A DNA stretch of 63,621 nucleotides, filler included, from Candidatus Woesearchaeota archaeon (GTDB lineage: Archaea; Nanobdellota; Nanobdellia; Woesearchaeales; B72-G16), in NCBI GenBank assembly GCA_003650545.1. It is 15 parts of 15 records of this genome, joined end to end, with 100 filler letters (N's around TTAATTAATTAA, not from the genome) between each part and the next. Parts side by side here need not be neighbours in the genome. Positions count along the whole stretch, not along the records: positions 47,742 to 51,700 come from QMQO01000084.1; 14 more parts are not named here. One strand, given 5' to 3'. The notes beneath the pieces were generated by a model. The model did not search any database. It worked only from the letters and a program-made list of their open reading frames with translations, and was not told the origin of the DNA. Of the stretch, positions 5,424 through 59,594 are shown in pieces. A program made the translations under genes and the position numbers. Each line of letters starts with the position of its first letter. Position 1 is the stretch's first letter.

Positions 5424-6301
5424 GAGATAGACCGAAAATTATAGGACTTATATGTGCTTGGGGTTGCAGAGATTGGATAGGTCTTGCTTTAAGACAGGCT
5501 GTGGAATACTGTGATGAAGTGATAGTAAACATTTCATCTCATTCCCCAGCTCTGGACAAATATGATGATGGAACTTATAACATTGCAAAGAATTTTTCTG
5601 GTATAAAGCTGTTTCACACTCCTGTTTATGATTCCCGTTGGAAAAGCCATCATTCTATTGTAAAGGCGAGATTGCTCAATGAAATGGTTGAATATGCATA
5701 TAACAGAGCAGATGGTAATTGGATATGGACTCTGGATGCAGATGAATTTTATCATAGAGGATTTGCTAACTTTATCAGGGAATTCATAGAGAATGTAGAT
5801 GATGAGATAGACACAATTGAACTTGAGTGTAAGATGTTCTATATCAATGCTCACTACTATCTTGTTGGATCTCACAAAAGACTTTTCAGAATCAGACAGA
5901 ACAATATCAATTCTGGAATCTACTTTGTCCCGACCCAGAGATGGGCTTTTGAAAGAAAGAGTGTGTTAATAAAGGGTAAACCTTTGCATCACTACAGCAT
6001 GCTGTTGAATCCTTGGATGAAAAGAGATTTCTGGAAAACAGAGTATCCAGACAAGGATCAGAGTAAAAAGATAAGATGGCTTGATGAGATATACAAGAAT
6101 TTTGACTTGTCTAATCAGGATAAATGGATAAGAAAGAATGAACAGCTTTTTGGAATCAAGTCTCCTTGGTTCTCTGATTCTTTCAAGCCAGATGAAAATG
6201 GTAGATTGTATGAGATGGGAAACGATAGACATCCAGAGATGATAGAGAACAGTTGGGTGGTTGGTGTGAAAGATTTTAGAAATCTTTATCATTTCAGATA
6301 A
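5420..6301 (+). CDS. glycosyltransferase family 2-like (GT-A)
   Basis: YCDEVIV, DDGT and WIWTLDADEFY (DxD motif); ATG 5420 overlaps the upstream TGA. Confidence 0.7.
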   Translation: MRDRPKIIGLICAWGCRDWIGLALRQAVEYCDEVIVNISSHSPALDKYDDGTYNIAKNFSGIKLFHTPVYDSRWKSHHSIVKARLLNEMVEYAYNRADGNWIWTLDADEFYHRGFANFIREFIENVDDEIDTIELECKMFYINAHYYLVGSHKRLFRIRQNNINSGIYFVPTQRWAFERKSVLIKGKPLHHYSMLLNPWMKRDFWKTEYPDKDQSKKIRWLDEIYKNFDLSNQDKWIRKNEQLFGIKSPWFSDSFKPDENGRLYEMGNDRHPEMIENSWVVGVKDFRNLYHFR

Positions 6302-6314
6302 ATAGGAGTCTTGT

Positions 6315-6995
6315 ATGAAACATCTCATAGTTACAAGGTGCGATAACAGTCAATCTGAAATGGCAAGAATATCACATCCACTTATAAAAGAATATGCAAG
6401 AAAATGCAATGCTGATTTTGGGATATTGGATAAAGGTGATGATGTGGGAGTTAGCACTCACTATAGAATCCTAAAATTCTATGATCTGTTTGAGAAATAT
6501 GATAGGATTCTTTCAGTTGATACTGATGTTATAATCAGAAAAGACACACCAAACATATTTGATATTGTTCCACCAAACATGGTAGGGACAATTTATGAAG
6601 ATAAAGGTAGTAGAGAGCAGGAGAGATTAAGGAGAATAAAACAGGTGCAGACTCAGTTTGGTGATGTGGGTTGGAAACATGGATACATAAATACTGGATT
6701 TGCTCTTTTTTCAAGGGAACACAGAATCATATTTGAGCCATCTGATGTCTTATATGATGGATATGGTTACGATGATGTATGGCTTGGGTATAAGATAGTC
6801 AAGTATAAAAAGCAGGTATTTGAACTTGATCCCAGACTCAATTTCATGTCCATGTTTACAGAACCTTGGTGTGGAATGAGAAAGTCAGATGCCTTTGTCC
6901 TGCACTATGCAGGTAAGGGATTCATTCCTTATCTGGATAGGGTAGAGCAGATGAAAAGAGATTTATACATTCTCAGGAGATACGGGATTGTCTGA
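6315..6995 (+). CDS. GT-A fold glycosyltransferase (GT8-like)
   Basis: YDRILSVDTDVII (DxD), YINTGF and LHYAG. Confidence 0.65.
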   Translation: MKHLIVTRCDNSQSEMARISHPLIKEYARKCNADFGILDKGDDVGVSTHYRILKFYDLFEKYDRILSVDTDVIIRKDTPNIFDIVPPNMVGTIYEDKGSREQERLRRIKQVQTQFGDVGWKHGYINTGFALFSREHRIIFEPSDVLYDGYGYDDVWLGYKIVKYKKQVFELDPRLNFMSMFTEPWCGMRKSDAFVLHYAGKGFIPYLDRVEQMKRDLYILRRYGIV

Positions 6996-31008: not shown

Positions 31009-31109
31009 ANNNNNNNNNNNNNNNNNNNNNNNNNNNNNNNNNNNNNNNNNNNNTTAATTAATTAANNNNNNNNNNNNNNNNNNNNNNNNNNNNNNNNNNN
31101 NNNNNNNNN

Positions 31110-34100
31110 TCATTGTAGTAAGTCTTGTTAGAGTGAATGCTTAAATTATACATTCCTGCTGGAAGAGTCGATGTATTTATAGTGCAATTATACTCTCCAT
31201 AACCCATCGGATAGACGGGCGAGCAAATAAATTCTTGGGAATTATGGATTAAGGTTATGTTTACGGAAGCGTCGCTTACTGGTATTGGTTGATCATCGGT
31301 TACCTTAGCTCTTATAGTAATATTTTCCACAGGCTTAAGGTACTCCGTATAAGTAGGTGGAATCAGCAAGGAATTATACAAATCTCCAAGAATGGTTAAC
31401 ACAAATTCACTCGAGTTTGCATCTAAATAGCAAGAATCTTGATAAGTTCCACCTTTCCACTTTTGTAAACCGACCGAATAGTCAGCTTGTGGATCAAAAT
31501 AAACTTTTAAGTAACCATCCTCATCAGTTAGGTTTTGTGTACCCGAATCATAATTAATTCCATCCTTGGTTACATAAATTATTCCTTGAACACCAGAACC
31601 TACAGGAGTTTGCTTTATCGTATCATAAATCCTCAATATCAGCAAGTCAGTTTGTGTCCCACTCCTGTTTGCAGTACTCTCATTTCCATAGATATATTCT
31701 ATGCTTACAGGATCTCTTTCTATAGATGGTGCCTGAATAACACTTGTGTTGAAAATATTTGTACCATCGCTAATTTCCCATTTAAATTCTACTGGATAGG
31801 TCGTGTTTATATCTAAACATGTGAAGTCGCTCACATTTACCTCACACCTTCCCTTACCATTATATACTGTGTCATTTCCTCTGTTCTGCCAGTTATTGTT
31901 GGAATAAACGAACAACCTGCAAGTTACATTATCGAACTGAGCATCATCTATATCTATCCTAAAAGTAAATGTTTCGCCCCATCCTCCTATGCTTGGAGTA
32001 ACTGTTTCATTCTCTGTTATTGGTGGAGTATTGTTCAAGTAAACCCAATTTTCAAAGTAGGTTGAGTTATCAAAATAGTATTGTTTGCTTGAGTTTATTC
32101 TAAAACTGTAAAGACCACCTTTATGAAAACTCGTATTCCAACTACAATTATAATAACCATTTCCTAAATCTTCAACAGGTTCACATCTCTCATACACTTC
32201 TGGTCCAAATATTTCAATGCTAACGTTTGCACCATTCTGCAAACCATCGTTCGAACAATCGGTTGGAATGCTTAAGTTGAAATTGACTATATCACCAACT
32301 AGTATAGATTGGTTGAAATACGGATAATTCAACTTATTCTTTAATTGACCAATTACAGTTATTTTTGCTCCAGGTATTTCGGCTATATTATCTTTATAAC
32401 ATCCATTGTTTTCGGTTCCTGCTTTCCAGCTTTGGATACCAACTCTGTAATTACAATCTGGATCAAAAATTAGATAAGAATAACCGTTTTCGTTACTAAC
32501 GTTCGAACCAGCGAAGAAATAATTATTTCCATCATGGGTTACATAGTAACTAGTGTTTGCAGTTATGTAAACAGCCCTATCTGCATCACTTACTCTTATA
32601 GTCAAGGTTGCATTATCGTCTCCCTCTCTTGTAAGAGTAAATGAATAGGGTGATACAAAAGTGACTGTAACATCATCCTTCTCTATGTTCATTTGAGCTA
32701 TTGAACTTGATGAACTATAGTTAAGTTCATCAACTGCTACAAACTTTACGTCCCTTGTTCCAATGTGTTCACAATTGAATGAATGCCCACTAAATTCTAC
32801 TAATTGTGGAGTGGGTGTTGCTGAGATTAAAGTTGAATCTATGAGTTCCCAGCCTGAACTTAAATTGATGTAGAGTGAAACGTTAACTTGATTATAATCT
32901 TCGTCTTTTACATAAATCTGGAAGGTCCAGGTTTCGCCCCATCCACCAGTACTACCTCCTTGTTGAGATAAGATAATGGGGGCTGTTGTAAATTGTGGCT
33001 TTGTAGCAAGGAAGAATGCATTAGTTTTTAGAATCTCTGTACCATTGTAATACTGTTTTGAAACTTTCATCTTAACGTCATACCAACCTGTTGACCAATC
33101 TGAATGAACCGAAGCTGGTATAGTACAAACATAGGTTCCATTTCCCAAATCAGTAGCTATACATTCGTAATTGGTTTGAGGAACGACGAATCTTACGTTT
33201 GCACCACTTACATATCCACAATCATCTTTTACTGTTCCTATTATTTCAATATTATCGATTCCTTTCAAGAACGATTGTCCTTCTGGTTCTGACAAATTAG
33301 CTGAAAGGTTTACAGTAATTACTGTAAACACAAACTCACTTGAATTAACATCTTTATACCAATTATCGTCTTTGGTTCCAGCTTTCCACTTTTGTGGACC
33401 TACTTCAAAGCTACAATCAACAGTTATATCGTTCAAAGTTAAATTCCCACTCGTATCGGTGTAATAATAGTTTGTTGAAATGTAGTGGGTTCTATCCTTA
33501 GTTATGTAGAATATTCCTTGTCTGTTTGCTCCCAAACTTTGATTTTTATCTGTATCGAAAACCCTAACTTTAAACTTCAATTTTGGTAAAGCACTTCTAT
33601 TATAAACAGTTCCATTTCCATACAAATGTTCAATCCTTACATCATCCTTATCGAGGTAGAAACTTCTTATGGAAGTATTGGTCTCATAACCTCTTGTATC
33701 TTCTGCTTTAAAGTAGAACTGTCTTGTTCCAATCTCAGAGCCGCTGAATGAACTATAGGTAAAAACAATCGTTTTGTTTATTCCAGAATCATAAGTTAGC
33801 AAATTAATCCATCCAAAACTTCTATTCAAGTACAAATAGATCGTATTTGTATCTAAATCTTCATCTGTGAAGTTAACCCTGAAGTACCAAGTTTCACCCC
33901 AACCACCATCATCGCTAGGATAAGCGATTGCATCCCAAAGCACTGGTTTGGTTTCTATGAAGAAAGCGTTTTTCTTCAAGGTTGAATTTTGAAGATATAA
34001 ATCTTTGGTTGATTCTACAGTAACATTGTACCATCGAGCTGGTAAAACTATTGGATAGCTCGTGTTCAATGTACAACTATAGTTCCCTGAACCTTCTGCT

Positions 34101-35248
34101 TTAACTTCTTCGCATTCAAAAACCCGACCGTTTTCATTCTTAATCCTAAACGTCACGTTAGATTCATTCAAATAGTTCAAACATTCATCTTTTAGGTTAG
34201 CCCTTAGGGTAACGTTTGTACCTCTTAAATAATTTTCACCATTTGGTTCAAGTATAGTTGGGACTTGAGAACCGATGATCGTTATATAATAATCACTCGT
34301 GTTTGTATCGATATAGCAAGTATCTGTTACTCCTGCTTTCCATTTTTGTAAGCCTACACTATAACTACAATCTGGATCAAAGTAATAGGTTGCATTTCCT
34401 AAACTATCGGTTTGATTTACTATATCTAGCTGATAATTGGTACCGTCATGCGTAATCCAGAAACTTACATTTGCACCTTCAACTATAGAGTTCTTTTCAG
34501 TATCAAAGATGTTGACTGAAAGCGGTTGAATTCCACTACTTCTATTAACGAAGGAATTGTTGCCCTGAATTAGGACTAAGAGTGTATCACTTTCCCTTAA
34601 CTTTGGAAGATTGATTGGAGTTGTATTATAATAATTAGCCGGTTCGCCATTCTTAATCTCCCACTTAAAGCTATTTATTCCTATATCCTCACAACTAAAT
34701 CCTTGATAAGCAACCCAACAAGTTCCTTCAGTAGGTATACCAGGAGTTCCTGTTATAGTATAACTTCCTACTTTCTCCCATGTATTAGTTGAATTTCTTT
34801 TAAGGTAGAGATTGCAAGTTATCATATCTCCTTCTTGGTCATAGATATCTATCGTAAAATTAAAGTAGCTTGACCATCCTCTATACTCATCAAGACTTAA
34901 TTCTTCCCAATCACCCAGGGCATAATTATAAACGTAAACGCTAATGTTTTCGCTCGTAGCATTCACATTTTCCAACCAGAACCAGTTGTTATAAACTGAA
35001 GAATTGGAGTTGTAATAGCCCTTACTAGAATTCAACCTTATATCCCACCATCCTTCTTTCTTACCAGTAGAATCCCAAGTACAATTATACCATCCATCGT
35101 ATTCATTATAAATAGGACTACAGCCCTCCCAATTACCCAGAGGACTTCTTAACTCTATGCTAAACTCGCTTGCATTGGTTATCAATCCTTCATTGCTGCA
35201 ATCGCTAGTAGTGTTAAACCTAATTAAAACCTGATCAGTAACGTTAAA
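31110..35248 (-). CDS. giant repetitive extracellular/S-layer-like protein, internal fragment
   Basis: Open across the whole contig; about four imperfect units of 320-330 aa (GGWGET, FDPDCxYxVGxQKWKAG, GxYxCxxNTS); many NxS/T sequons. Confidence 0.8.
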
Positions 35249-39438: not shown

Positions 39439-39538
39439 NNNNNNNNNNNNNNNNNNNNNNNNNNNNNNNNNNNNNNNNNNNNTTAATTAATTAANNNNNN
39501 NNNNNNNNNNNNNNNNNNNNNNNNNNNNNNNNNNNNNN

Positions 39539-42500
39539 ATAATATACACCGGTTGATACTTCTTTTTTAAATCTGTTTTTTCCATCCCAGTATGCTATTA
39601 TATTATTTGTATCCATTGCTGTTACTATCTCTCCGGATACTGTATATATCTGTATCTTTGAACCAGGCACTATATTTGCAAATTTTAATTTCCCTCCCAC
39701 TGCTTCTCTTGGATAAAACGGGTTCGGATACACAACCGGCTTATCAGCAGGGTAAAATACAATGTTTGAACTAATCGGAGGATGTCTGTCTGGCACCACA
39801 TAATATTTATCATTATAATCACAACTTACTTTATTTGCAATCGGTAATTCGTTGTTTATTCTTGTTATTTCCACTGTAAATTCTATGTATATTGTTTTTC
39901 CTGGATTTAGAGTATTTCCTGTTAAATCCCATACAATATAATTTCCATTTACCTTAAGGTTTGTTCTTATGTTACTATTTATAAATATCAGATTATCTGG
40001 CAAGGTGTCCCATATAGATAAATTGTATGCTGGAGTAGTATCATTGTTTATTATCTTTATTGTATATGTGATTTTTGCTCCTGGTTTAGGATTTTCTCCT
40101 GTTACTTTTAATGAAATATCAAGTGTTACAGGCGATGGCCGTGGCAAAGGTGTTTCTGTATAAGTTGGCACATTTGTAAATGTTTTTGTTGGTGTGTGTG
40201 TTTGAGTATTTGTATATGTATTGGTAGATGTTGGAGTTAATGTGAAGGTTAAACTATATGTAAAAGTCTCAGTATTTGTCAGGGTATTTGTAAATGTATA
40301 AGTTGCTGTATAAGTTTCAGTATTTATGGGTGTATCTGTGAATGTCCATGTTGGTGGCTGTGTTCCTGTTACTGTTTCTGTAGGTGTATATGTTGATGTT
40401 TCCGTATAAGTAAATGTGCCGGTATTTGTAGGCGTAAATGTATTTGTTAATGTATTTGTTGGTGTATGAGTTGATGAATTTGTTGAAGTATTTGTCTCAG
40501 TAAATGTTAAAATATCTGTAGGTGTATACGTTGATGTTTCCGTATAAGTAAATGTGCCGGTATTTGTAGGCGTAAATGTATCTGTTAATGTATTTGTTGG
40601 TGTATGAGTTGATGAATTTGTTGAAGTATTTGTCTCAGTAAATGTTAAAATATCTGTAGATGTATACGTTGATGTTTCCGTATAAGTAAATGTGCCGGTA
40701 TTTGTAGGCGTAAATGTATCTGTTAATGTATTTGTCAGACTGTTAGTTGGAGTAACCGTAGATGTATTTGTTGGCGTGGGTGTCGCCGTCACAGACGGCG
40801 ACGCTGTTTCTGTATCTGTGGGTGTTGATGTTTCTGTATTTGTTTCTGTATCTGTAAATGTCGGTGTTTCTGTATCTGTAGGTACAGTTTCAGGTGGACA
40901 GCATCGCGGGTCTTCTTCAGTATCTCCGCTTATTGTTTTTAATGTAAATGCATCAAAATAAATATCCCCTTCATTAAGAGGCCCTGACTGAACCTCAAAT
41001 TCAACAGTAGAAGCAGTATCCTGATTCTGCAAATCCCAGCAGTACTGTATCCAGTCAGATAAGTTTGATATTGTCTGGTCTACTGTCGAAATCTGGTTAA
41101 ATCCTGACATCAATCTTATTACAAAAGAAGATGCTGTCATATTCCGTATCCAGACACACAACCTATTATACCCCGTAAGATTTCCTTCGCTAACAGGAAT
41201 ATTAAGAATCTGTCCAAACCACAACTGCCCTCCGGATGTTCTTGAATGTTTTAAAACACCTACAGTATCATAAGTATTGGATATATCTGATTCCCATGAC
41301 ACTGTGCCATAATTAGTTGTAATTCCTGCTATGGAAGCTGCATCTGGAAAGCAATTTATTGGGTCATGCCCTTTAGGTAAGGAAAGATTCGGAGTGCATG
41401 GAGTTGGTGTTGGAGTAAATGAAGAGCAATCAACAAAATCAACATCAACCCAGGATATTGTTTTGTATCCGCAATTATCATTTGCTTCTATATATATTCT
41501 TCGTGTCCCTAAAATTCCAGCAGGGTCAAAAACAGCAGAAAATCTTCTGCCTCCAGAAGGTGCAGACGACGGTCCTGTATCACTCATTCCTGTCCAGTCA
41601 GAAGTAATTGGATAAGCGTATGTGCCACCTGTCATTTCATTATCCAACCAGTAAGAATATCCGCCAGTAGAAGGGTCTCCCGGGCTTATTGCATATCTTA
41701 CTGTTAGTCCTCCTCCACCTGCATTATCATCAAGCACATCAGAAGTTATTGCAAGTAGAGTATTATTGCATACATCAGGTATTACAGGAAATGCCTGCTC
41801 TGATGTTGGAAACGGATGCCTTGGATTTATCCAGTAAATTTCAGGAGCTAAATTATTGGTATCACATAAAGCTGGCGATGTTTCTTCCAACCCCATAAAA
41901 TTTGTATAAGCATCAAGAAAATCTGCCTGATTAAACATATCCCCTTTTGGTAAATATAACCTCGGATTCGGCAAATATTTCTTCATTATCCTTAACATTG
42001 TTAACCAGTTATATCTGAATGATATTGTATTTGCATTATATCCTTGAGGTTCCTGCCCTGCTGGCACCTTCCCTGCCATCCTCTGAAATGCTAACTGTAA
42101 TTCATTTACCATCCCATTCCATTGCGCATCTGTCGGTATCCCATTCGCATAATGCATACTTCTTAAATCCTGTAAAAAATCCTGCACATCTCCCCATGTT
42201 ATTGCCCAGTCATATACATCAGGATCTCTGCCTATTCTTTTCATTAAATCAACTACCTGAGGCGCATACCATCCGTTGCCCACTATATTATGTGTAACAC
42301 TGATATTGTTGGATGTCAAAGCTGATATTCTGGTTCCAGTGCCGCAACGCAGATTCTGGACTTCAGAATGCGGACCTTTATTATAACCAACCACAAGAAT
42401 TCTTGTAAGTGCATATGGGTCAGTGGCCGCTGCTACAAACTCATCCAGTCGGAAAGAACGTGAGGCTGAAAAATATCCATAATACCGTGATGAAATATCT

Positions 42501-43570
42501 AAAAGCATTGTTATTGTTGCATTAACTATGTTATTTCTTGTTTCAGGAGGAATAGAAATAGAAAGAGCATTCAAATAAGAATTATTATGTGGAAAATAAT
42601 CGGGGAATGATGAAATCGCCATTTGTATATCACCGTCTATCATCTGATATGGTCCATCTCCTGAGCCATTGGAACATACATTCCCTGCCCATGTCCAGTC
42701 AGGTCCTGCAGAGCCATCATTAAAAAGTCCTATCCCACATTCTTTAGTGCCAATAGCAAATGTTAATCTCATATCATACCCAAAAAATTCCTGTCCCCAT
42801 GCAGCTGCCATTGCCCACATAAGACCCCCAGGTCCTGAACCTGAAGTATGTGTGTAACTGACTCCTGCACCTGTCGGAGAATTCGGCGCCCACCTGTATC
42901 CTGTAGCTGATGTTCCCCATACAGCATAAGCCCCTGAATAATAATCTGAAGGGTTAAGTGCATCCTCTACTGTTGTTCCTGGCGGCATATGTGGTTTGCC
43001 CACCCATAACTGTGTTGGGTGATGTGAGGTAGATACAAATGCAGGAGCATCATCTCTTGCCACCCATGCATTTGGATCATAATAATCACTCTGGCCAATT
43101 ACAGCACCTGTTACCGAATCAATATCAGTATATGTTAAAGGAGGCGCATAACTTTCTGTATCAGTATTTTTAAATGAATAACAAGGTTTTAACCTTAAAA
43201 CAACATGTGGGTACCTTGGATATGGCATTCCTCCTGCCAGTGAAAGTTGTATATTTCCGGCTCCCCATCTTGATCCATTAGTACATATTGAATCATCACC
43301 AACCCCAACCGGTGGCTTTAAATTTATGCTCTGAACAGGAATCTGCCACCTGTACATCACCGCACCATCAAGATCTGTACCTAAAGTAAAAAATCCTCCA
43401 GGCTGTGAAGGTAAAGACGTTGTATTAAATCCCATTGCCACCACTTCAAAAAAATCATTATTCCATGAATAAACATTCTGTCTATTGTAAACACACATAG
43501 GTCCGATTGCAGGGTTTCCTGACATTGGTATTGTCATTTCAAAATCTGCAAAAACAGCAGGGATTGACAA
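39539..43570 (-). CDS. large secreted modular protein (possible lysozyme-like domain, CBM-like domain, Thr-rich linker, DUF11, FlgD-Ig/sorting-type CTD), truncated at both ends
   Basis: PGAKITYTIKIIN...IWDTLP (DUF11); VYPNPF...IYTVSGEIV...WDGKN...STGVYY (CTD); long (T-x)n tract. Confidence 0.8.
40377..40735. repeat. 138-bp tandem repeat, about 2.6 copies, in-frame (46-aa Thr-rich unit)
   Basis: GTTGATGTTTCCGTATAAGTAAATGTGCCGG recurs at 40392, 40530 and 40668. Confidence 0.92.
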
Positions 43571-43726: not shown

Positions 43727-44167
43727 TTACTCAACCCTTGTTGAGATAGTTCCTGTTATAGTATGAGAAATTCCTTCTCCTGAAGTGTAGCTTATTGTAA
43801 TATCTTCGTTAAATTTAGAGCCAGTTATATCACCACAGTTTGTAACAGTAAAGGTCTCTTTTTCAGTGTCAGTTAATGACCCGTCTCCTGCTGTCCAGCC
43901 ACCACATGCTCCTCCAACAGATACATTAATTGAATTTAGATCCTGCCCCATACCATTTTGTATAACTAATGTAACTGTATTTGCAGTGCCATCAACCTTA
44001 AAATCAATACAACTTAAACCGGGCTGGTTAAAGGTACAGCTTGAAGGAAGGTATTTCCCAGGATTCAATACTCCAAAGTATGCCAGAGCTGCTATTGCTA
44101 ACAAGACAACAAGAATTGCCCAGCCATAGGTCATTAAGAATTCCATTGCAGCTTGTGCTTTTTTCAT
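43727..44167 (-). CDS. archaeal type IV pilin (class III signal peptide)
   Basis: MKKAQ-AAMEFLMTYGWAILVV, typical of DPANN pilins; GAGGTGA SD. Confidence 0.88.
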   Translation of the reverse strand: MKKAQAAMEFLMTYGWAILVVLLAIAALAYFGVLNPGKYLPSSCTFNQPGLSCIDFKVDGTANTVTLVIQNGMGQDLNSINVSVGGACGGWTAGDGSLTDTEKETFTVTNCGDITGSKFNEDITISYTSGEGISHTITGTISTRVE

Positions 44168-44257
44168 TTTATCACCTCTATTCCTAGATTTTATAGTATA
44201 TTACTATACTTTTCTATATATTAATACTAACTTATATATAAAACTAACTATTTTCAG

Positions 44258-45244
44258 CTAAATAATACTTCCAAACAGCTTGCCAATAACTAATGAAAAG
44301 ATTAAGAACAACACAATAGTGGATATAATGAACATTGGAATATATTTTATTCCTGCCTTTATCTCTCCTTTTTTTATGGTTGCAATTATTATAGAGGAGA
44401 AATATGATGTTATGATAAGGCATGTAATGGCAAATACCCTAAAATCCTTAATAGACGTACCAGCTCCAGAGAAATTAATAGAAAAAGTTGTTATTCCTGA
44501 AGGCACGTCAAGCTTTAACATAAGGTTGCTTACTATAAAAAGCAGATGACTCGACAATGCAAACAATAATGGGGCTGCAACTATTGTTGCAAATGAAATA
44601 AATATCACATAAGTTGTGACATTGGCTGACAGCTCTTTCTTCATAATCTTTGATTCTTTTATATCAATTGCTATTTTATTAAGCAAATCACCTATTTCAC
44701 CCCCAGCAGCTATACCCTCAATAAGAAGGTTTATTGAACGTTTTAGCATGAGTGAGTCATATTTTTCTGCAAACCTTTTAAGAGCTCCCTCAAGGTCTTC
44801 ACCTCCCATGGTCTCTTTTGCAACCATCTCTATCTCATTGGCTAAAACCCCGAATTGCGGCCTTACAGCATACCATAAAGCACGGTCAATAGGCATGCCT
44901 GCCCTTATGTTTGCAGATGTTAATTGTAAAAAGTCTGCAAGAACCTCTTCTACTCCAACTCTCCTCTTAAATATCCTTAGGTCTATGATAAAATAAAATA
45001 ACAACCACAGCATTAGCAGGAGTGTAATAAATAAAACTACCCATACAAGAAACATAACAAAACCAACATATAAAACACCATATTTCAAATCAGTTGAGAA
45101 ACGATAAATAAGGTAAAATGAAATTATCAAATTCAAGAAAACACATAAGTTAAAAATTATTTTTGATATCTTGTGGGATTCTACAACAAAACCTGCTCTT
45201 TGTAAGTAATATCTTAATCTGTTCTTTCTGTGCTCCATCATCAA
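44258..45244 (-). CDS. type IV pilus/T2SS F-family membrane platform protein (TadC-like); probable true start at 45362 across a frameshift
   Basis: LADFLQLTSANIRAGMPIDRAL, FGVLANEI and GGEIGDLL; C-terminal TM helices. Confidence 0.85.
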   Translation of the reverse strand: MMMEHRKNRLRYYLQRAGFVVESHKISKIIFNLCVFLNLIISFYLIYRFSTDLKYGVLYVGFVMFLVWVVLFITLLLMLWLLFYFIIDLRIFKRRVGVEEVLADFLQLTSANIRAGMPIDRALWYAVRPQFGVLANEIEMVAKETMGGEDLEGALKRFAEKYDSLMLKRSINLLIEGIAAGGEIGDLLNKIAIDIKESKIMKKELSANVTTYVIFISFATIVAAPLLFALSSHLLFIVSNLMLKLDVPSGITTFSINFSGAGTSIKDFRVFAITCLIITSYFSSIIIATIKKGEIKAGIKYIPMFIISTIVLFLIFSLVIGKLFGSII

Positions 45245-45358
45245 CTTCTTTTTTTTCTGTTTTTGAAGCTTACGGTATAATTTAATCTTATCCTGAATAG
45301 TTTTTTCTCCTTTTTTTTCTTTTGTTTTTTTTTGATGATTTAAACAGCTCTTTTATCT

Positions 45359-46177
45359 TCATATTTCCACCGCAGGTCTTGAGGATTTTATAATTGAGAA
45401 AAACATATATTGTATAAATCCAAGAGATAATGCTATTGCTAGCAAAGCAGCCAGATCAAGCTTTACTGAGATAAATGTTGTAAGTACAATGAGCATTGTT
45501 ATGCCCAATGAAGGAACTATAATTGCAACCATCATATAGAACATTGCCAAGGGGTTTAGTTTTCTTCCATATTCCTTTACATCAATAATTTGCTCACGAA
45601 CAATTTGGTCAAGTATGTTTGAAAGCGAGCTTGAGATATCTGCCCCTGTCCTAAGAGAGTTAAGTATCTGCCATAGCACCTTAGTTAAATCTGAGGAGGG
45701 TGTTGTTTTTATTGTTTCATTTATTGCATCCTCCATTGTTGTTCCCATAGATACCTTATCTATTATTTCCTTAAAGTATTCTCCAATTACTTCATAATTT
45801 TTTGAGACATTAACCATTGCATCATACAGAGAAACTCCTGATTCAAGCTCTATTATCATAAAGCGACCAGCAAAAACAATCTCTCTGCTTATCTCTCTTC
45901 CCTTTCTTAATATCTTAACATCAGGCACCTTAAGCATGTAGAAAAACATAATAAAGAACATAAACAGAGGGAAAGCAAAATAGATTATGCTTGATAATAT
46001 CTCCAGTTGGGTAAATACTGTTACAACCAAGGCAGTTATTCCCGTTGTAAGGTAGAACGCAGACAAGATTGTCTTCTTGACAAATTCTTCAGGTGTATCA
46101 AAAATGCCTGCTTGTTTTAACTTTGTGCTTAGTCCAGGAAGAGTCCTTGCAATCCTTTTGATTAATACATTACTAAT
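45359..46177 (-). CDS. type IV pilus/T2SS F-family membrane platform protein (TadB-like)
   Basis: IELESGVSLYDAM, SLRTGAD and EYGRKLNPLAMFYM. The frame extends upstream of the track start (46066) through KLKQAGI...PEEFVKK. Confidence 0.8.
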   Translation of the reverse strand: MSNVLIKRIARTLPGLSTKLKQAGIFDTPEEFVKKTILSAFYLTTGITALVVTVFTQLEILSSIIYFAFPLFMFFIMFFYMLKVPDVKILRKGREISREIVFAGRFMIIELESGVSLYDAMVNVSKNYEVIGEYFKEIIDKVSMGTTMEDAINETIKTTPSSDLTKVLWQILNSLRTGADISSSLSNILDQIVREQIIDVKEYGRKLNPLAMFYMMVAIIVPSLGITMLIVLTTFISVKLDLAALLAIALSLGFIQYMFFSIIKSSRPAVEI

Positions 46178-46183
46178 ATAAAA

Positions 46184-47641
46184 TCACCTTGATTTCTTTT
46201 TTGACCTGACAGTTTTCATGAATTCGTCCTTATTTGTATAGTATTCAGCCATAACCCCACCAACATCATCAACTGTATTTATGTTATGTTTAACCATATA
46301 TTTCAGAACAAGCTCCTTTTCCTTGAGATCTTTGTTTATCTCATTCCTTGTCATACCAGTGAACATCTGTAGGGTCTTCATAATAGATGAAGATTCATGC
46401 GCCTTTTCTAATTTATCCTTTTTTATATTAAGCTGGATAAGTACATTTGTGCTTGTGTCAGGAAGTATTTCTGATATCTGAAAGGTCTTTCTTGTTCCTG
46501 TTCTTCTGTTTCTGTATTGTACAAGAATCATTGAAATAGCTGGGAGCATTGTTCTTGGAATATCAATAGGAGGATTTGTTAATCTTGTAATTGTTTCATC
46601 TGTGTCATTTGCATGCACTGTTGCATAGACTGAGTGGCCTGTGTGAATTGCCTCAAACAAAACTTCTGCCTCTTTCTTTCTTCTTATTTCTCCAACAACA
46701 ATCCTGTCAGGCCTCATTCTTAAAGAATTAACCAATAAGTCAAGCATTGTTATAGCACCCCTGCCTTCTGGATTAGGTAATTTTGTTATCATGGGAATCC
46801 AATGTAAAAATTTAGGCAGTTTTATCTCATGAGTGTCCTCAATTGAGATTATTCTCTGGTTTGGAGGGAAGAAATTTGAGACAACATTGAGCATAGAGGT
46901 TTTTCCTGTTGCAGTTCCACCAGAGATTATTATAGATAGCTCATATTGAACACCAAGCCAGATAAAGGCTGCTGCCTCAGCAGAGATTGTCTTGTTTTTT
47001 ATAAAATCTGTAATTGTCCATGGCTTTGCTGCAAACTTTCTTATGGTTATTGTGTTTCCTTTTAGTGAAGTTGGCAAGAGTGTTGCATTTACCCTATCGC
47101 CAGTACTGAGGTTAGCATCCATTAATGGCTCAAGAACAGTTATCTGCCTTCCTACCTTCTTGCCTATTAAAGATGCATAGTGCTTTATCTGCTCCTCACT
47201 ATCAACCCCAATGTTTGTCTTAAGCCAGCCATGCTTTCTGTGATAAACCCAGACAGGCTCCTCTGCGTTATTAATAGCTATCTCCTCAAGATTAATATCA
47301 TTCATCAGGATTTCTATGTTACCCATGCCGAGGCTTTTTTGGATTAAATATGACTTAAGAAAATTCATTGTTTTCTTATTAACATCAGGGAAATGCTTTT
47401 TTACTAACAGGTCAATTGTTTCTTTAAACCTTTGTTCAATCAAATCACTCTTCTTTACATCTATTATATCAATTATGCCAAGGTTTACCTCTGTGATAAG
47501 CTCCTGCCTTATCTTCTCAAGTATTATCTCTGTATTTTTGCTTATGCTTGATATAGAGACATCATATATTGGAACAAACTCTTTTTTTTCTGTGTAAATC
47601 CTTATCTTTATAGGAATTTCATTAGAAATAAAGTTATATTC
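46184..47641 (-). CDS. type IV pilus assembly ATPase (CpaF/VirB11 family), 5' truncated
   Basis: GGTATGKT, SIEDTHE, LRMRPDRIVVGEIR and TGHSVYATVHA. Confidence 0.92.
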   Translation of the reverse strand, partial: EYNFISNEIPIKIRIYTEKKEFVPIYDVSISSISKNTEIILEKIRQELITEVNLGIIDIIDVKKSDLIEQRFKETIDLLVKKHFPDVNKKTMNFLKSYLIQKSLGMGNIEILMNDINLEEIAINNAEEPVWVYHRKHGWLKTNIGVDSEEQIKHYASLIGKKVGRQITVLEPLMDANLSTGDRVNATLLPTSLKGNTITIRKFAAKPWTITDFIKNKTISAEAAAFIWLGVQYELSIIISGGTATGKTSMLNVVSNFFPPNQRIISIEDTHEIKLPKFLHWIPMITKLPNPEGRGAITMLDLLVNSLRMRPDRIVVGEIRRKKEAEVLFEAIHTGHSVYATVHANDTDETITRLTNPPIDIPRTMLPAISMILVQYRNRRTGTRKTFQISEILPDTSTNVLIQLNIKKDKLEKAHESSSIMKTLQMFTGMTRNEINKDLKEKELVLKYMVKHNINTVDDVGGVMAEYYTNKDEFMKTVRSKKKSR

Positions 47642-47746
47642 NNNNNNNNNNNNNNNNNNNNNNNNNNNNNNNNNNNNNNNNNNNNTTAATTAATTAANNN
47701 NNNNNNNNNNNNNNNNNNNNNNNNNNNNNNNNNNNNNNNNNCGCTC

Positions 47747-47828
47747 ATTTGTCTTATTTGTCTTAAAATACCACATTCGCATATATAAGCGTTTCGCTTA
47801 TGATAAAACTTATAAACGAAATAAGACA
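47747..47828. promoter_or_regulatory. putative operator/promoter region upstream of the RHH gene
   Basis: Tandem ATTTGTCTT at 47747 and 47756; TGTCTTATTT (47750) inverted as AAATAAGACA (47819); ATAAGCG-ttt-CGCTTAT palindrome at 47785-47801. Confidence 0.4.
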
Positions 47829-47852
47829 TATGCTTTGGCAGGGCGAGAGTCT

Positions 47853-48014
47853 GTGGATAGAAAAACGTGGTCCACGCGGCTAGACAGAGAAACTGAGAAA
47901 AAAGTCAGAGATCTAATAGAGAAGACTGGCTTGAAGGAAGCTGAAGTCCTTCGGAGACTAATAATCATAGGACTGAAAAACGTGAAGGAACCTGCCGATC
48001 TTCTTGTAATTTAA
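47853..48014 (+). CDS. ribbon-helix-helix (CopG-like) DNA-binding protein, 53 aa
   Basis: Manual translation: (M)DRKTWSTRLDRETEKKVRDLIEKTGLKEAEVLRRLIIIGLKNVKEPADLLVI*. Not in the ORF track. Confidence 0.65.
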   Translation: MDRKTWSTRLDRETEKKVRDLIEKTGLKEAEVLRRLIIIGLKNVKEPADLLVI

Positions 48015-48207
48015 GTCTTCGCACTCTACTGTTTATTTAACCTTAAGTTTTATCAATCTAGTTCTTAAAGGCTTGGAGGATATGAGAATCTTTTGGGTTT
48101 CATCTAAACTCGACACCTCACCTCTAAAAACCTTGCCAAGAATCAAAGATAACGCAAAACATCAGTAAAAACACATATATTTAACAAATCAATATCTTTG
48201 AAGAGAG

Positions 48208-49380
48208 ATGAAGAAGGCTTTTGTAAGTCCTTGGCATAAATTTCTGGATGATGCACACCTGTTTTCACCTCAGAGAATATATGATGCCTCATGGCTTCTT
48301 CTAGCTTATACTTTTTTGGGACGCAAAGCTGAAAGATTATGCAGAGAAATCTACAATATCCTACTCCATTTAGACTCTATGAAGCGTGACGATCTAGTAG
48401 ATTTTCTCTTTGATTATAGACGAGCCGTTGGAGTTGCTTTAGGAGCTTTTATCCTTAGAAAGAAAATAAAGTCCTTTAAGGAATTACTACCTAAAATATC
48501 CCAAATCCTTTTTGAGTCGAGTAGGGATAGTGAGATAGGCGAACTAGTAGGTGCATCTTTTCTTTTCGTGAAATATCTTTCAAAAGACGAGGAATTGAAG
48601 AAGAAGCTGGAAAGTCTCATGAAGGAGATCATAGAGAAGTCTTTTGAGCGGAAGCGTTTTGAACAATATTACCGAGACATACTCTATATCGCGTTTTTCT
48701 CTGCACTTGCCGATCAAAATTTGTATATCGAGATATTGGATAGGTTGCGAAGGAACGAGCAGCTAATTGAGTATATTGAGAACGACTTGGAAGCTATGGC
48801 CCTACTACTTTTCACAGTATCTAGACTGTCGATGAAAAGGAATGGTGTTGATACAGCATTGAAAGAGTGGGCCAGAGAAAAAAGGGATGAATGGGCTCCT
48901 GAGCTTCATAACTTAGCTAACGAAATCGGGATTTATCATTGGATACAGCGAAACATCATTTTTCAGGGTCTATTTGCTTCCTACACTGAGGAAAGCAGTC
49001 AGGATATAGAATCTCCATACTTGAACATATGCTCGAAAGTTACGTTGGCGTTGGTTGAAGCAGGATATGAGAGACCATTCACTCTTTCAAAATATGAGTA
49101 TGATGTTTATCTTCAGATTAAAGGTGAAATAAAGAGATATAGGCGGGTGCGAAAAATTGAACTTGTCTTTCTCTTTCTCTGCACGGAATTAAGCGTATTT
49201 TTACTTTATCGCTTTTTCTTACCAACGATTATACCAATAATGTTTAATCTTAAAGCTTGCATACTCGCACTGACAATTGTAGGCATTCTATTATATTCTG
49301 TATGGAAATATGGTCAAGTACCTATCCATGTACTGAAGGACATACTTAACCATATAAAAAATCGTCTCTTAGGGTCTTGA
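48208..49380 (+). CDS. Argonaute-associated membrane protein (candidate effector)
   Basis: Helical soluble region plus a C-terminal hydrophobic segment of about two TM helices; ends 28 nt before the pAgo ORF. Confidence 0.65.
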   Translation: MKKAFVSPWHKFLDDAHLFSPQRIYDASWLLLAYTFLGRKAERLCREIYNILLHLDSMKRDDLVDFLFDYRRAVGVALGAFILRKKIKSFKELLPKISQILFESSRDSEIGELVGASFLFVKYLSKDEELKKKLESLMKEIIEKSFERKRFEQYYRDILYIAFFSALADQNLYIEILDRLRRNEQLIEYIENDLEAMALLLFTVSRLSMKRNGVDTALKEWAREKRDEWAPELHNLANEIGIYHWIQRNIIFQGLFASYTEESSQDIESPYLNICSKVTLALVEAGYERPFTLSKYEYDVYLQIKGEIKRYRRVRKIELVFLFLCTELSVFLLYRFFLPTIIPIMFNLKACILALTIVGILLYSVWKYGQVPIHVLKDILNHIKNRLLGS

Positions 49381-49408
49381 GGGGGCGATTAAAATCTCAC
49401 GTAATAGC

Positions 49409-51412
49409 TTGTTTATAAATGCATTTTCAAGTGAAGAGAACATCTCCGATCTTAAGGTAGCAAAGGTTGCCGTAGCGGTAAGAGACATGAAAAGACTATC
49501 TCAATATGAGAGAATGTTATCTCTCTCAGGAGTTGCTAACTGCGTGTTTTACGGTGACTATCTATATGTAAAGGGCGATGTCGATAAGGCAATCGATATC
49601 TTAACTCGGGGAGGAGCAATAATGAGTAAAACGCTTTTGAGGGACGAATCTTTACTTTCTCAAGTTGAACCGAAAGTAACTAGAATGCTGATTTACTCAG
49701 CTTTGGAGAACAACGTTTTTCAAGAGAGAAATTGGATAGCGCCTTTAAGAAAGACAAAACGCGCTATTCCCAAGGCGGATGTAGCATCGGATAATCTGAT
49801 GGTGGAATTAAAAGACGAGATCATCGTGCTTTTTGGATTGAAGTATATGATTGAATTTAGGTCAACAGGGCAACCGTTGCTTTGGCTGGACATGTATGCT
49901 CCAGTATGGTCTCGTAGTGAAGCCCGAAGATTAAGCCGGAAAGAGTTAACTGAAGAATTAAAAGCTCTTTATGTGAAAAAGGCAATGCTTCCTCCACATA
50001 AAAGACACGAAAAGATAAAATCCATATTGGATGAGCTTTTTGAAGGAGATGTAATTAAAGTAACCTTCTGCGATGGGGAGACTCTGAATTTCTCTAAAGA
50101 ACACGTTCACATTTTTGAGCTGGAAGAACCTGCAAGCCCAACAGAGAGTTTCTCCTTTATGAAATTAGGCGAACCCGCAGTAAGATTCAGATATGGCGGG
50201 TCATACGAACCAAGACGAATACTCCGTCTGAAGCCTTATAGTTACTATGTTATCAAGGAGATACCTGTTAAGGCGATTGTTGGTGCGTCTGAGAAAGAAG
50301 ATTTCATAACTTTCTTTAGATATTTAAATAATGGATATTCTGGGGACTATATGAGGTGGCCAGGTTTTTATCAGGTAATGGGAGCTCATCTTATTTTGGA
50401 CGAAGATGTAAAAGAAATTGGAGGCGACAATCTTTCAGAATACGAAGATGCACTGTTGGAAATGTTCAACGAAGCAGAAGAAAACTCGGTTATATTTGTA
50501 ATTGTTCCCGAAAACTTCCGGTTTTACAGAAAGATTAAAGCCTTATCACTTCAACGGAAAAGGCGTATACAAATTCTAAAGACTTCTACCTTGAGGAAAG
50601 AGCCCCTTGAGTTCACACTAATAAATGTTGCAAACGCCGTCTACGCAAAGGCGGAAGGAACCCCTTGGCTACTTGAGAACCCTCTCTCTGCGACAAAAGG
50701 GTTATTTGTTGGAATATCATTCCACCTAGACCATAAAAGTAAAGACATCTATTATGGAGCGGCAGAGGTTTTTGACAATCGCGGCTATTTCTTGAAGTGT
50801 TTGGTGCGAACTTATAGATTACCAAAGCCTGCAAAGAAAGTGAGGGGTCTGTACATTCCTGAAAAGGAAATGGAAGATCTAGTGATGCACCTCATCAAGG
50901 AGTATAGGCCCCGAATGCTTATAATACATAAAAGTGCGAAAATACATGAAGACGAGAAAAGAGCATTAGAAAATATTAGGGTAAAAAATGGAATTGATTA
51001 TTGTTTAGTTCATATTGAAAACTCGAACCCCTATAGAATTTACGTGCCGAGAGATCAGCCGAATTACATGCCGCTTAGAGGCACAATAATCTTTGATAAA
51101 GAAAAAAGAAACAGAACAATCATGCTAACCACAGGCCAAGCGATTGGCGACAGAGGAGATATTAAAACGATAACAAAAATTGGCTCTCCAAAACCACTCG
51201 AAATAAACATTGAGGAAAATAAGACGCCCCATAATGTTAGAGAAATTTCTGAACAGATACTTGCACTTACCAAGCTAGACTGGAACACCACTAACATCGC
51301 GGTTAGAACACCTATCACAATAAAATACTCAAATAAAGCTGCAAGACTAGCCCCATACCTTATGGGTGGAGAAAAATTGTTAAGTATAAACGACATCAGA
51401 GACCTGTTGTGA
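49409..51412 (+). CDS. ago: prokaryotic Argonaute, catalytically inactive
   Basis: N-terminal FINAF; MID YRKIK...IQ...VYAKAEGTPW; PIWI LFVGISFH, IIHKS, PLRGT, PKPLEI, QILALTKLDWN and PITIKYSNK. Confidence 0.9.
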   Translation: MFINAFSSEENISDLKVAKVAVAVRDMKRLSQYERMLSLSGVANCVFYGDYLYVKGDVDKAIDILTRGGAIMSKTLLRDESLLSQVEPKVTRMLIYSALENNVFQERNWIAPLRKTKRAIPKADVASDNLMVELKDEIIVLFGLKYMIEFRSTGQPLLWLDMYAPVWSRSEARRLSRKELTEELKALYVKKAMLPPHKRHEKIKSILDELFEGDVIKVTFCDGETLNFSKEHVHIFELEEPASPTESFSFMKLGEPAVRFRYGGSYEPRRILRLKPYSYYVIKEIPVKAIVGASEKEDFITFFRYLNNGYSGDYMRWPGFYQVMGAHLILDEDVKEIGGDNLSEYEDALLEMFNEAEENSVIFVIVPENFRFYRKIKALSLQRKRRIQILKTSTLRKEPLEFTLINVANAVYAKAEGTPWLLENPLSATKGLFVGISFHLDHKSKDIYYGAAEVFDNRGYFLKCLVRTYRLPKPAKKVRGLYIPEKEMEDLVMHLIKEYRPRMLIIHKSAKIHEDEKRALENIRVKNGIDYCLVHIENSNPYRIYVPRDQPNYMPLRGTIIFDKEKRNRTIMLTTGQAIGDRGDIKTITKIGSPKPLEINIEENKTPHNVREISEQILALTKLDWNTTNIAVRTPITIKYSNKAARLAPYLMGGEKLLSINDIRDLL

Positions 51413-52091
51413 CACCTCTATCTGTTCCTTAAAAGCATAATTCTCCCTTTAGAGGCGGCATAAAGTAAGCAGCCCCTTTTAAACTCAAGTCTATTATTCT
51501 CTTGTTGTTGCAATATTTCTCTAAGCTTATTTCTCCCAAATTTCCCTTTTTAGTTATCGACTTCGTGAAATGTAGAGTAATGTAGAGGAGTTTCGGCGGA
51601 TGAGGTGGCTAAAGTTTGCACATCAATCAGCCTTATTGGAAAGCGTAACAACTAATCCTTTTCCAACTGCTTCAGCAATTTATCTTTTTTATAATCATAA
51701 NNNNNNNNNNNNNNNNNNNNNNNNNNNNNNNNNNNNNNNNNNNNTTAATTAATTAANNNNNNNNNNNNNNNNNNNNNNNNNNNNNNNNNNNNNNNNNNNN
51801 CCAACGGACATCGAGAATCAAGAAAATCGAAAGAGAGAAGAGACTCCTTGATTGGAAATAGAACCTTCTAACAAATCTTACACTATTCCAAGCACATTAG
51901 AGATAATGCGGGGGGTGGGATTTCCACCAAAATTTACCGGTAACTCTCCACCAGAAGCACCACCCCTAAATAGGTCTTTCAAGCTGGCCTCTTAGCTGAT
52001 TAGATTATTTTTCGTTTTTCGCTTGTTGGTTTAACTTCTCTGTGCCAGTCAGCATGTAAAAATTAAATTCAATAAGGATTAATGTAGTACA

Positions 52092-55414: not shown

Positions 55415-55825
55415 ATCAATTCCTAAAAACCCGGCCTCGAAAATAAGCTTTTAGAGACTTCTTAACCAAAGAATCTGGCTTGAGTAATTCAGCCTCTTCT
55501 CATCGAGCCCGAGATCGAGGTGGAGACGGAAATTCCTCTGAGATTATAGAACTCCATCATTTTTCACATATCAGTCAGTCGTTAAGAATATGTTTCTGGG
55601 TTTGTCCGAATTCACCTGATTAAGACCTTTCAAAATCTCCTTGAAGAGGGATTATAATGAGTGATCATTCAGATTTCTCATAGTTTCTTGCATGTTGCGT
55701 TTTCATGGATTTTGAGAGGCAGGTCNNNNNNNNNNNNNNNNNNNNNNNNNNNNNNNNNNNNNNNNNNNNTTAATTAATTAANNNNNNNNNNNNNNNNNNN
55801 NNNNNNNNNNNNNNNNNNNNNNNNN

Positions 55826-55926
55826 AGCGCTTCAATCTCTCCATTAATGTTATCCAATTTAATACGGTAATCGTTGAGAATCTTATACGTCTTAACAATT
55901 AGTTTATAAATATCTGTTGTATCCAT
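55826..55926 (-). CDS. hypothetical protein N-terminal fragment (mirror copy)
   Basis: Mirror of 59595-59695. Confidence 0.45.
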
Positions 55927-56006
55927 TACCTTTACCCCCTATTTACTATCTAGTAAAATAATAGGTTAGAATTAGTAAAAAAGATTTATTGGTTATAATT
56001 ATGTTA

Positions 56007-56969: not shown

Positions 56970-56979
56970 TTCACTCCCC

Positions 56980-57402: not shown

Positions 57403-57574
57403 TACTATCCACTCTCCGTGTCTCCCCCTACATGACTCGAGGACTACACATAAATGTATATACTAAAAACCTTATAGATATATTTACTTCTATACATTCA
57501 TGTACCGCACCCTCCCGCACCCACGACCCCCGCCATTTCTTTTCTATAAGAAAGTGTATCATAAATTTAATGGT

Positions 57575-58541: not shown

Positions 58542-58551
58542 GGGGAGTGAA

Positions 58552-59514: not shown

Positions 59515-59594
59515 TAACATAATTATAACCAATAAATCTTTTTTACTAATTCTAACCTATTATTTTACTAGATAGTAAATAGGGGGTAAAGGTA

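Follow-up and report, generated by a model that had tools for sequence, protein, structure and literature searches.

A two-gene Argonaute locus on a short archaeal contig

We analysed a 63,621-nucleotide (nt) stretch of DNA from a Candidatus Woesearchaeota archaeon (GenBank assembly GCA_003650545.1), referred to here as the window, in which one short contig (QMQO01000084.1) carries two adjacent genes. The second of these (gene 2) encodes a prokaryotic Argonaute (pAgo) and the first (gene 1) a putative membrane effector. The system with which we compare the pair throughout is that of Sulfolobus islandicus, which consists of SiAgo, SiAga1 and SiAga2 (PDB 8znj and 9lgw; the latter two proteins are also called Aga1 and Aga2 below). 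The main features of the locus, with domain boundaries in part from AlphaFold2 (AF2) models, are as follows:

47742..51700, no strand: contig of the locus, 3,959 nt, with artificial spacers at 47642-47741 and 51701-51800
48208..49380, plus strand: gene 1, ATG start, 390 amino acids (aa); putative membrane effector of an unannotated family, located as Aga2 is in S. islandicus
48208..49152, plus strand: predicted soluble all-helical domain, gene 1 residues 1-315, about 14 helices (AF2)
49159..49245, plus strand: predicted first hydrophobic (transmembrane) helix, gene 1 residues ~318-346, preceded by a basic YRRVRK motif (Kyte-Doolittle)
49255..49305, plus strand: predicted second hydrophobic (transmembrane) helix, gene 1 residues ~350-366, followed by the conserved W366 and G369 (Kyte-Doolittle)
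49409..51412, plus strand: gene 2, TTG start, 667 aa; single-chain, catalytically inactive SiAgo-like pAgo
49409..50143, plus strand: predicted Aga1-like / N-L1-L2 (APAZ-equivalent) domain without PAZ, gene 2 residues 1-245 (AF2 and Foldseek)
50144..50674, plus strand: MID domain, gene 2 residues ~246-422, with the 5'-phosphate pocket Y373, K377, Q388 and K414 (SiAgo alignment)
50675..51412, plus strand: PIWI domain, gene 2 residues ~423-667, with S437, L481, S509 and N642 at the tetrad positions; inactive

The two genes are co-directional and are separated by 28 nt (49381-49408), the arrangement described in a first-pass annotation that had been made from the sequence without database searches. 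Homologous clusters indicate that both are real genes. Among 5.8 billion proteins, gene 1 has 13 such clusters (E 3e-251 to 5e-45), with identities of 34-38% except for a 99% twin. For gene 2 there are 8 close clusters, and a search of 1.84 billion representatives found 1277 relatives at E<=1e-3. The protein collection contains twins of both genes: P0001, from a contig of 2059 nt, is 99% identical to gene 1, and P0014, from a contig of 3959 nt, is 100% identical to gene 2. The TTG start of gene 2 is supported because the N terminus that it specifies (MFINAF...) aligns with the N termini of its family (..LLNVF..).

Gene 2 combines an Aga1-like fold with an inactive MID-PIWI module

The C-terminal part of gene 2 matches the Pfam Piwi model at 29.0 bits (cut-off 28.9) and, over residues 249-656, the PADLOC pAgo model PDLC02436 at 284.8 bits. 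Its best PDB sequence match is 8znj_A, with E 2.4e-20 for gene 2 alone and 1.3e-31 when the family profile is used. This 459-aa chain is SiAgo, in which the MID and PIWI domains are described as spanning residues 1-191 and 192-459 (PMC11788926). Using the pocket and tetrad residues given for SiAgo in the same article, we obtained the following correspondence:

5'-phosphate pocket: SiAgo H138 / K142 / Q153 / K183; gene 2 Y373 / K377 / Q388 / K414
non-catalytic tetrad positions: SiAgo A213 / L257 / T291 / N435; gene 2 S437 (nt 50717) / L481 / S509 (nt 50933) / N642

Pocket residues K377 and Q388 are invariant in all 27 sequences of the clade, and at the four tetrad columns none of the 27 aligned clade sequences has D or E. 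By this alignment, gene 2 has an intact guide pocket and is nuclease-dead. The first-pass annotation had also read the pocket as intact and the tetrad as lost, and its positions for the two serines, 50717 and 50933, are exact.

The N-terminal domain of gene 2 gave no Pfam or PDB sequence match, either as a single sequence or as a 13-row profile. We modelled residues 1-255 with AF2, with a predicted local distance difference test score (pLDDT) of 86.3 and a predicted template modelling score (pTM) of 0.82. The best Foldseek match of this model in the PDB was 8znj_B, the SiAga1 chain (E 3.8e-10, template modelling (TM) scores of 0.66/0.70, 262 columns against a 237-residue chain). It was followed by AfAgo-N (N-L1-L2), the APAZ modules of SPARSA and SPARTA and the N-terminal lobes of long Argonautes, and the model had 117 PDB fold matches at E<=1e-3. 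Because its first 255 residues are predicted to fold like SiAga1, we regard gene 2 as a fusion of Aga1 and Ago, in which a single chain holds an Aga1-like module (N-L1-L2, no PAZ), MID and a dead PIWI domain. Stand-alone versions of the module exist, namely nine proteins, 217-258 aa in length, that match positions 1-238 of the profile (E 1e-33 to 2e-21). In a representative search with the gene 2 family, many proteins of 400-465 aa match only profile positions ~245-669.

Two trees place gene 2 among pAgos. The first, built with FastTree, has 128 rows, comprising gene 2 and all of its relatives of at least 400 aa that were found, with shorter matches left out. There, gene 2 belongs to a family of nine rows (support 100), itself part of a set of 29 rows that includes SiAgo (P0091; support 97). 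The second, a quick IQ-TREE run (LG+C20 PMSF), has 51 rows: 26 clade proteins, gene 2, the pAgos of loci L001 and L002 (described below) and 22 outgroup rows chosen by hand from the other clades of the first tree, whose remaining rows were not included. Its supports are Shimodaira-Hasegawa-like approximate likelihood ratio test (SH-aLRT) values with no bootstrap, and four long branches were flagged. The 29 SiAgo-like rows hold together against the 22 outgroup rows (SH-aLRT 84); the nine rows of the SiAgo subclade (97) have as their sister a group of 19 rows (92), within which the gene 2 family falls (8 rows, 100). The first-pass annotation had named long-B and SiAgo-like pAgos as the two placements to be distinguished. 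Gene 2 groups with SiAgo and not with the proteins of 700-1100 aa, and the trees assign it with moderate support to the SiAgo-like group, in the sister subclade to SiAgo itself. Fused proteins (the gene 2 family, P0025 and P0037) and short proteins are interleaved in the 19-row group, which argues that fusion or fission has happened more than once.

Gene 1 belongs to a small family with C-terminal hydrophobic helices

The AF2 model of gene 1, computed from a 13-row alignment, is all-helical, with a mean pLDDT of 75.7 and with residues 21-240 mostly above 80. About 14 helices in residues 21-312 are followed by one long helix at 316-368. Kyte-Doolittle values exceed 1.6 only in the 19-residue windows that start at 316-351, and C-terminal hydrophobic segments are present in all ten family members examined (gene 1 and nine others). 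The model and the hydropathy profile agree with the earlier description of a helical 390-aa protein with about two C-terminal transmembrane helices. The motifs of the family are DYRRAVG, SEIGELxG (GELxG) and, directly before the first hydrophobic helix, EAGYxxPFxLSxxExxxYxxI...YRRVRKxE. By the positive-inside rule, the basic YRRVRK stretch would fit a cytoplasmic N-terminal domain.

Searches with gene 1 gave no significant match in Pfam or NCBIfam and no match in PADLOC, consistent with the earlier statement that it has no nuclease, TIR or SIR2 motif; none of the ten family members has a Pfam match better than E 0.02. Matches to PDB sequences were at chance level with both the single sequence and the profile, and a Foldseek search of the gene 1 model against the PDB returned no match at E<=1e-3. 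The best non-significant folds are designed six-inner-helix barrels and alpha/alpha toroids (TM scores of 0.27-0.48), and the soluble domain, as modelled, is possibly a closed alpha/alpha repeat. A feature search of the ESM Atlas gave scores of 0.87-0.90 (171-187 of 256 features shared), where scores below 0.9 are leads only. These leads are two unnamed Actinomycetota clusters and clusters with SQHop_cyclase_C / prenyltransferase alpha/alpha-toroid families; the effector of locus L002 leads to the same clusters at 0.82-0.85. A 10-row profile meant to extend the family recovered, besides members already known, only P0171, the L002 protein. By these searches, gene 1 represents a very small, well-conserved and unannotated family.

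Gene 1 and its homologues are linked to SiAgo-like pAgos in three genomes

A genome scan with a 15-row pAgo alignment yielded 25 loci. On the stop-to-stop open reading frames (ORFs) of at least 50 aa at these loci we ran three hidden Markov models, A1 for gene 1 and its homologues, A2 for the pAgo family and A3 for the N-terminal module. A2 matched all 25 loci, and A1 and A3 each matched two, L001 and L002, which are the only fetched loci with an intact SiAgo-like pAgo. At L001 (Ca. Methanodesulfokora washburnensis), a fused pAgo of 672 aa follows about 20 nt after the end of the gene 1 homologue (618 bits). At L002, a Thaumarchaeota metagenome-assembled genome (MAG), three overlapping genes encode, in order, a gene-1-like protein of 449 aa, an Aga1-like protein of 258 aa and a short pAgo of 417 aa. 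The gene-1-like protein (A1 E 4e-18) has two C-terminal hydrophobic segments and is 29% identical to gene 1 over a 340-residue local alignment; the Aga1-like protein matches A3 at E 3e-36. Linkage is therefore seen in three genomes, that of the window and those of L001 and L002, where the gene 1 homologue lies directly upstream of the fused pAgo (L001) or of the split Aga1-like and short pAgo pair (L002). The first-pass annotation had proposed testing whether the pairing is conserved across genomes; it is conserved in the two other genomes covered.

Among the 23 remaining loci, 22 have pAgos whose best BLAST match lies in other clades. Because A1 matches only L001 and L002, and the other loci hold pAgos of other clades or a 45-aa remnant, the gene 1 family tracks SiAgo-like pAgos specifically. 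Indirect evidence points to further pairs: gene 1 homologue P0005 and pAgo P0015 come from the same source and have the same reported longest contig (18,271 nt), and gene 1 homologue P0006 and pAgo P0019 also have the same reported longest contig (6,311 nt). At L001 an Eco57I-type methylase lies 1.8 kilobases downstream, and the upstream genes at L002 include an rve integrase and a HEPN protein; both neighbourhoods fit defence or mobile regions.

Two other groups of sequences came out of the same scan and searches. Locus L021, from a Thermoprotei MAG, holds at 4146-4286 about 45 residues of a SiAgo-like PIWI C terminus that are 47-56% identical to P0027/P0028 and gene 2. The fragment looks like a pAgo remnant, and no gene 1 or Aga1-like match was found near it. 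A separate group of archaeal short pAgos of ~484-500 aa (P0111, P0142 and P0166; L003, L005, L006 and L008-L012) is common in Bathyarchaeia, ANME-1 and Promethearchaeota MAGs.

Comparison with characterised Argonaute systems

In S. islandicus, Aga2 is encoded upstream of Aga1, and Aga1 upstream of Ago. As described in two reports, Aga2 has two transmembrane regions, which are absent from the deltaC construct, and a soluble domain in which a basic pocket (R7, R8, K12 and K13) mediates binding to anionic lipids. The same reports describe Aga2 as forming large oligomers and depolarising the membrane, and its soluble domain as binding SiAgo-Aga1 only in the presence of bound guide RNA and target DNA (PMC11788926; bioRxiv 10.1101/2021.12.09.471704). 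Full-length Aga2 is reported to have resisted purification (PMC11788926). In the preprint, defence is described as needing all three proteins, with the membrane protein as the toxic effector, and isoprenoid lipid intermediates are proposed as SiAga2 targets (bioRxiv 10.1101/2021.12.09.471704).

The window locus resembles this system in several respects. SiAgo is the closest solved MID-PIWI by sequence and lies in the same clade as gene 2, the pocket is kept and the tetrad is non-catalytic position for position, and the N-terminal domain of gene 2 has the SiAga1 fold in the predicted model. The gene of the putative effector lies upstream and encodes a predicted soluble N-terminal domain followed by two predicted transmembrane helices. 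L002 repeats the three-gene order with a gene 1-homologous effector, and the window locus and L001 show the same order with Aga1 fused. By analogy, the sensor is likely to activate the membrane effector here as well. The locus differs from the SiAgo system in that a single 667-aa chain contains both Aga1 and Ago, so that there are two genes and not three, and in that gene 2 is only ~26% identical to SiAgo. Its N-terminal domain has no sequence-level similarity to SiAga1, and gene 1 comes from a family without detectable annotation. In addition, the short contig, which extends 288 nt beyond gene 2, shows no helix-turn-helix regulator equivalent to M164_1615 of S. islandicus. A tblastn search with SiAgo (P0091) against plasmids and phages gave no match.

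Three other groups of systems share parts of this architecture. Inactive pAgos that lack PAZ are described in split and single-chain forms, with effectors that join a conserved helical domain to a transmembrane, TIR, HEPN or PD-(D/E)XK module, and Af1317 is said there to resemble SiAga2 (PMC10954474). AfAgo with AfAgo-N and Af1317, and the other PAZ-less long-B pAgos of that report, are like the window locus in having N-L1-L2 without PAZ, in having single-chain and split forms among their relatives and in having an effector composed of a helical domain and a transmembrane region. AfAgo-N chains take ranks 2, 3, 5 and 6 in the fold search of the gene 2 N-terminal domain (E 1e-7 to 7.6e-7). However, the effector gene of these systems is described as lying directly downstream of the pAgo, whereas it lies upstream here and in SiAgo, and AfAgo is a weaker sequence match to gene 2 than SiAgo is (E 5.9e-8 with the single sequence and 3.3e-11 with the profile). 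BPAM systems, in which a long-B pAgo accompanies the effector bAgaM (og_100), whose C-terminal transmembrane region is reported to be needed for cell killing (PMC10620215), likewise pair an inactive pAgo with a C-terminal transmembrane protein. Their pAgos are described as full-length bacterial long-B proteins, whereas gene 2 has no PAZ remnant: its 255-aa N-terminal part can be aligned over its whole length with SiAga1 and AfAgo-N, which lack PAZ, and in both trees it groups with SiAgo and not with proteins of 700-1100 aa. In SPARTA, SPARSA and SPARDA, an inactive MID-PIWI also works with an APAZ/N-L1-L2-like module, and the SPARSA and SPARTA APAZ chains are significant fold matches of the gene 2 N-terminal domain (E 6e-7 to 1e-4). 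Their APAZ is fused to an enzymatic effector (TIR, SIR2 or nuclease), whereas the APAZ equivalent of gene 2 is on the Ago, and the putative effector is a separate membrane protein without an enzymatic domain.

The first-pass annotation had proposed an inactive pAgo sensor with a membrane-anchored partner and had presented the pair as a candidate new system. The mapping of the tetrad and pocket, the hydropathy of gene 1 and the gene linkage support the first of these proposals, with the role of each protein assigned by analogy. The claim of a new system was not supported. The locus is not a categorically new system: its pAgo belongs to the SiAgo-like group and carries a fused Aga1 equivalent, and its gene order and the predicted topology of its effector repeat the Aga2-Aga1-Ago operon of SiAgo. 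We regard it instead as a compact variant of the known SiAgo-like abortive-infection system, in which the abortive function would be retained. In a limited search of literature that uses the term "SiAgo-like" (PMC11333966, bioRxiv 10.1101/2023.12.14.571608 and PMC11788926, as far as these texts were covered), we found no description of a fused form in the SiAgo clade or of the gene 1 effector family.

Defence of the SiAgo type extends, by these data, beyond Sulfolobales to Korarchaeota-like (Ca. Methanodesulfokora) and Nitrososphaerota/Thaumarchaeota genomes, with fused and split forms interleaved. A single-chain Aga1-Ago with a separate effector of two transmembrane helices is the smallest version of the system, and biochemistry, structural work and heterologous reconstitution could therefore be easier than with the three-protein SiAgo. 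The gene 1 family, which would be either a second independent sequence family or a very distant branch of Aga2, offers a handle on the step by which an Argonaute loaded with guide and target activates a membrane protein.

Proposed mechanism and alternative explanations

Taken together, we think it probable that the locus is a two-gene, SiAgo-like Argonaute defence module in which Aga1 is fused to Ago and a membrane effector brings about abortive infection. The guide type, the binding between the two proteins, the toxicity and the defence phenotype are modelled here on the SiAgo system. The pAgo would load a short 5'-phosphorylated guide, RNA by analogy with SiAgo, and would then pair with invader nucleic acid in the cleft between N-L1-L2 and PIWI and shift its conformation. 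Gene 1, in the position of Aga2, would be a cytoplasmic helical domain anchored by two C-terminal transmembrane helices, and gene 2 would bind this domain only after target pairing. Probably as an oligomer, gene 1 would then collapse the membrane potential, and the infected cell would die or arrest before the invader could spread. Three complex predictions of gene 2 with gene 1 residues 1-315, run without controls, scored 0.83, 0.04 and 0.02 and speak neither for nor against binding.

Several observations weigh against this interpretation. The contig of 3,959 nt is too short for defence-island context, for a regulator or for host assignment. The Aga1-like domain has no sequence-level match to SiAga1 (8znj_B) with the single sequence, with the 13-row profile or with the stand-alone homologue P0062; what ties it to SiAga1 is the predicted fold. 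In the better-modelled IQ-TREE tree, support for the clade is moderate, with SH-aLRT values of 84-92. Gene 1 has no PADLOC match and is likened to Aga2 by position and predicted topology. At L001, the gene 1 homologue is split in two frames within the transmembrane region (5556..6803 and 6728..6973), a break that could be decay or a sequencing error. Finally, 9 of the 14 gene 1 family clusters are on metagenome contigs and fall outside the linkage count, although none of these is known to lack a pAgo.

We weighed three other explanations against the abortive-infection module. In one, which we consider unlikely, no suicide takes place: the guide-bound pAgo would bind and block invader or host nucleic acid and leave the cell alive, with gene 1 serving as an anchor in the membrane or as a regulator to position the pAgo or hold it in check. 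The complete guide pocket and nucleic-acid cleft of gene 2 are compatible with such a role, as is the lack of a recognisable toxic domain in gene 1 in Pfam, PADLOC and NCBIfam, and for EaBPAM no stable pAgo-effector complex is reported to have been detected (PMC10620215). However, in the single relative that has been characterised, the corresponding membrane protein is described as the toxic effector and all three proteins as necessary for defence (bioRxiv 10.1101/2021.12.09.471704). Strict linkage of the genes, together with strong conservation of the juxtamembrane motif, also suits an effector better than a passive anchor.

It also seems doubtful to us that gene 1, activated by the same sensor, belongs to a new, non-pore effector family unrelated to Aga2, with an alpha/alpha toroid of the prenyltransferase/terpene-cyclase type that binds or modifies isoprenoid membrane lipids or their precursors. 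The ESM Atlas leads of gene 1 (0.87-0.90) and of the L002 effector (0.82-0.85) to SQHop_cyclase_C / prenyltransferase clusters point in this direction, and the best Foldseek matches are designed barrels and alpha/alpha toroids, with a class II terpene cyclase domain at rank 40. The reported binding of anionic lipid head groups by SiAga2, with isoprenoid intermediates as its proposed targets (bioRxiv 10.1101/2021.12.09.471704), would suit it as well. But Atlas scores below 0.9 are leads only, and structural comparison of the Atlas leads gives TM scores of 0.34-0.45. None of the Foldseek matches reaches E<=1e-3, and the best has TM scores of 0.38/0.48. None of the ten gene 1 family members matches a prenyltransferase or cyclase Pfam model at E<=5, and no catalytic motif was identified in gene 1. 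An elaborated form of this idea strikes us as quite improbable: gene 1 would found a family unrelated to Aga2, whose toroid captures or alters isoprenoid lipids, so that death follows from lipid sequestration or modification and not from a pore, and the helical module may be a pAgo-docking domain shared by the effectors of inactive pAgos.

It is very improbable that the locus is a decaying or misassembled remnant without current function: the very short contig, the GC contents of 34-49% among contigs of the bin, a perfect palindrome on another window contig (likely an assembly artefact), the frameshifted gene 1 homologue of L001 and the 45-aa pAgo remnant of L021 would suit it, but neither gene 1 nor gene 2 is broken or truncated when set against its family, none of the pocket residues or family-invariant motifs is missing, and the protein collection holds the near-identical and identical twins P0001 (99%) and P0014 (100%).

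Contig context and other features of the window

The window joins 15 contigs of 3,826-4,638 nt in descending order of size, with GC contents of 0.34-0.49, a spread that suggests that the bin may be mixed. The contigs are separated by 14 spacers of 100 nt, each composed of N44, TTAATTAATTAA and N44 and centred at 4683, 9287, 13719, 18148, 22479, 26803, 31054, 35293, 39483, 43616, 47686, 51745, 55770 and 59740. Because spacers bound the 3,959-nt contig of the pAgo locus, the flanking window genes say nothing about it, and we dropped the window neighbours (pilus genes upstream, and the genes downstream) as genomic context, since they are on other contigs. ORFs listed across spacers (for example 39491..43570 and 31058..35185) begin inside spacer sequence.

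On its own contig, the locus is flanked by 466 nt on the 5' side of gene 1, made up of an AT-rich stretch and a small ORF, and by 288 nt on the 3' side of gene 2. The small ORF is located as follows:

47853..48014, plus strand: small ORF with a GTG start, 53 aa, between the contig start and gene 1

By eye it is ribbon-helix-helix-like, with a short strand and then two helices, and it could be a candidate regulator; a search for such a regulator gave no match in Pfam and no meaningful match in the PDB. Rfam and tRNA scans across the window gave no match, and a scan of the locus contig for bacterial-type promoters and terminators was set aside as uninformative for an archaeon.

Three other contigs had features of their own. 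A separate contig, unlinked to the pAgo locus, carries on the minus strand (43727-47443) a type IV pilus / archaellum-like cluster. Its T2SSE ATPase (E 1.6e-35) is accompanied by two polytopic membrane proteins and by a 146-aa protein whose hydrophobic N terminus is pilin-like. The contig at 55826-59695 is a perfect palindrome, with arms at 55724-57760 and 57761-59797 that are 100% complementary with 0 nt between them, and is most likely a fold-back assembly or amplification artefact. It holds mirror copies of a 320-aa AAA-type ATPase ORF (weak AAA_23/DAP3 matches), a 140-aa ORF and a 103-aa ORF, with 39-nt repeats close to its centre. The region at 59836-63620 encodes the largest subunit of an archaeal-type RNA polymerase (Rpb1 domains 1-5), and the ORF next to it carries an intein, with a LAGLIDADG endonuclease, inserted in Rpb1 domain 5. 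The coding region runs off the end of the window.

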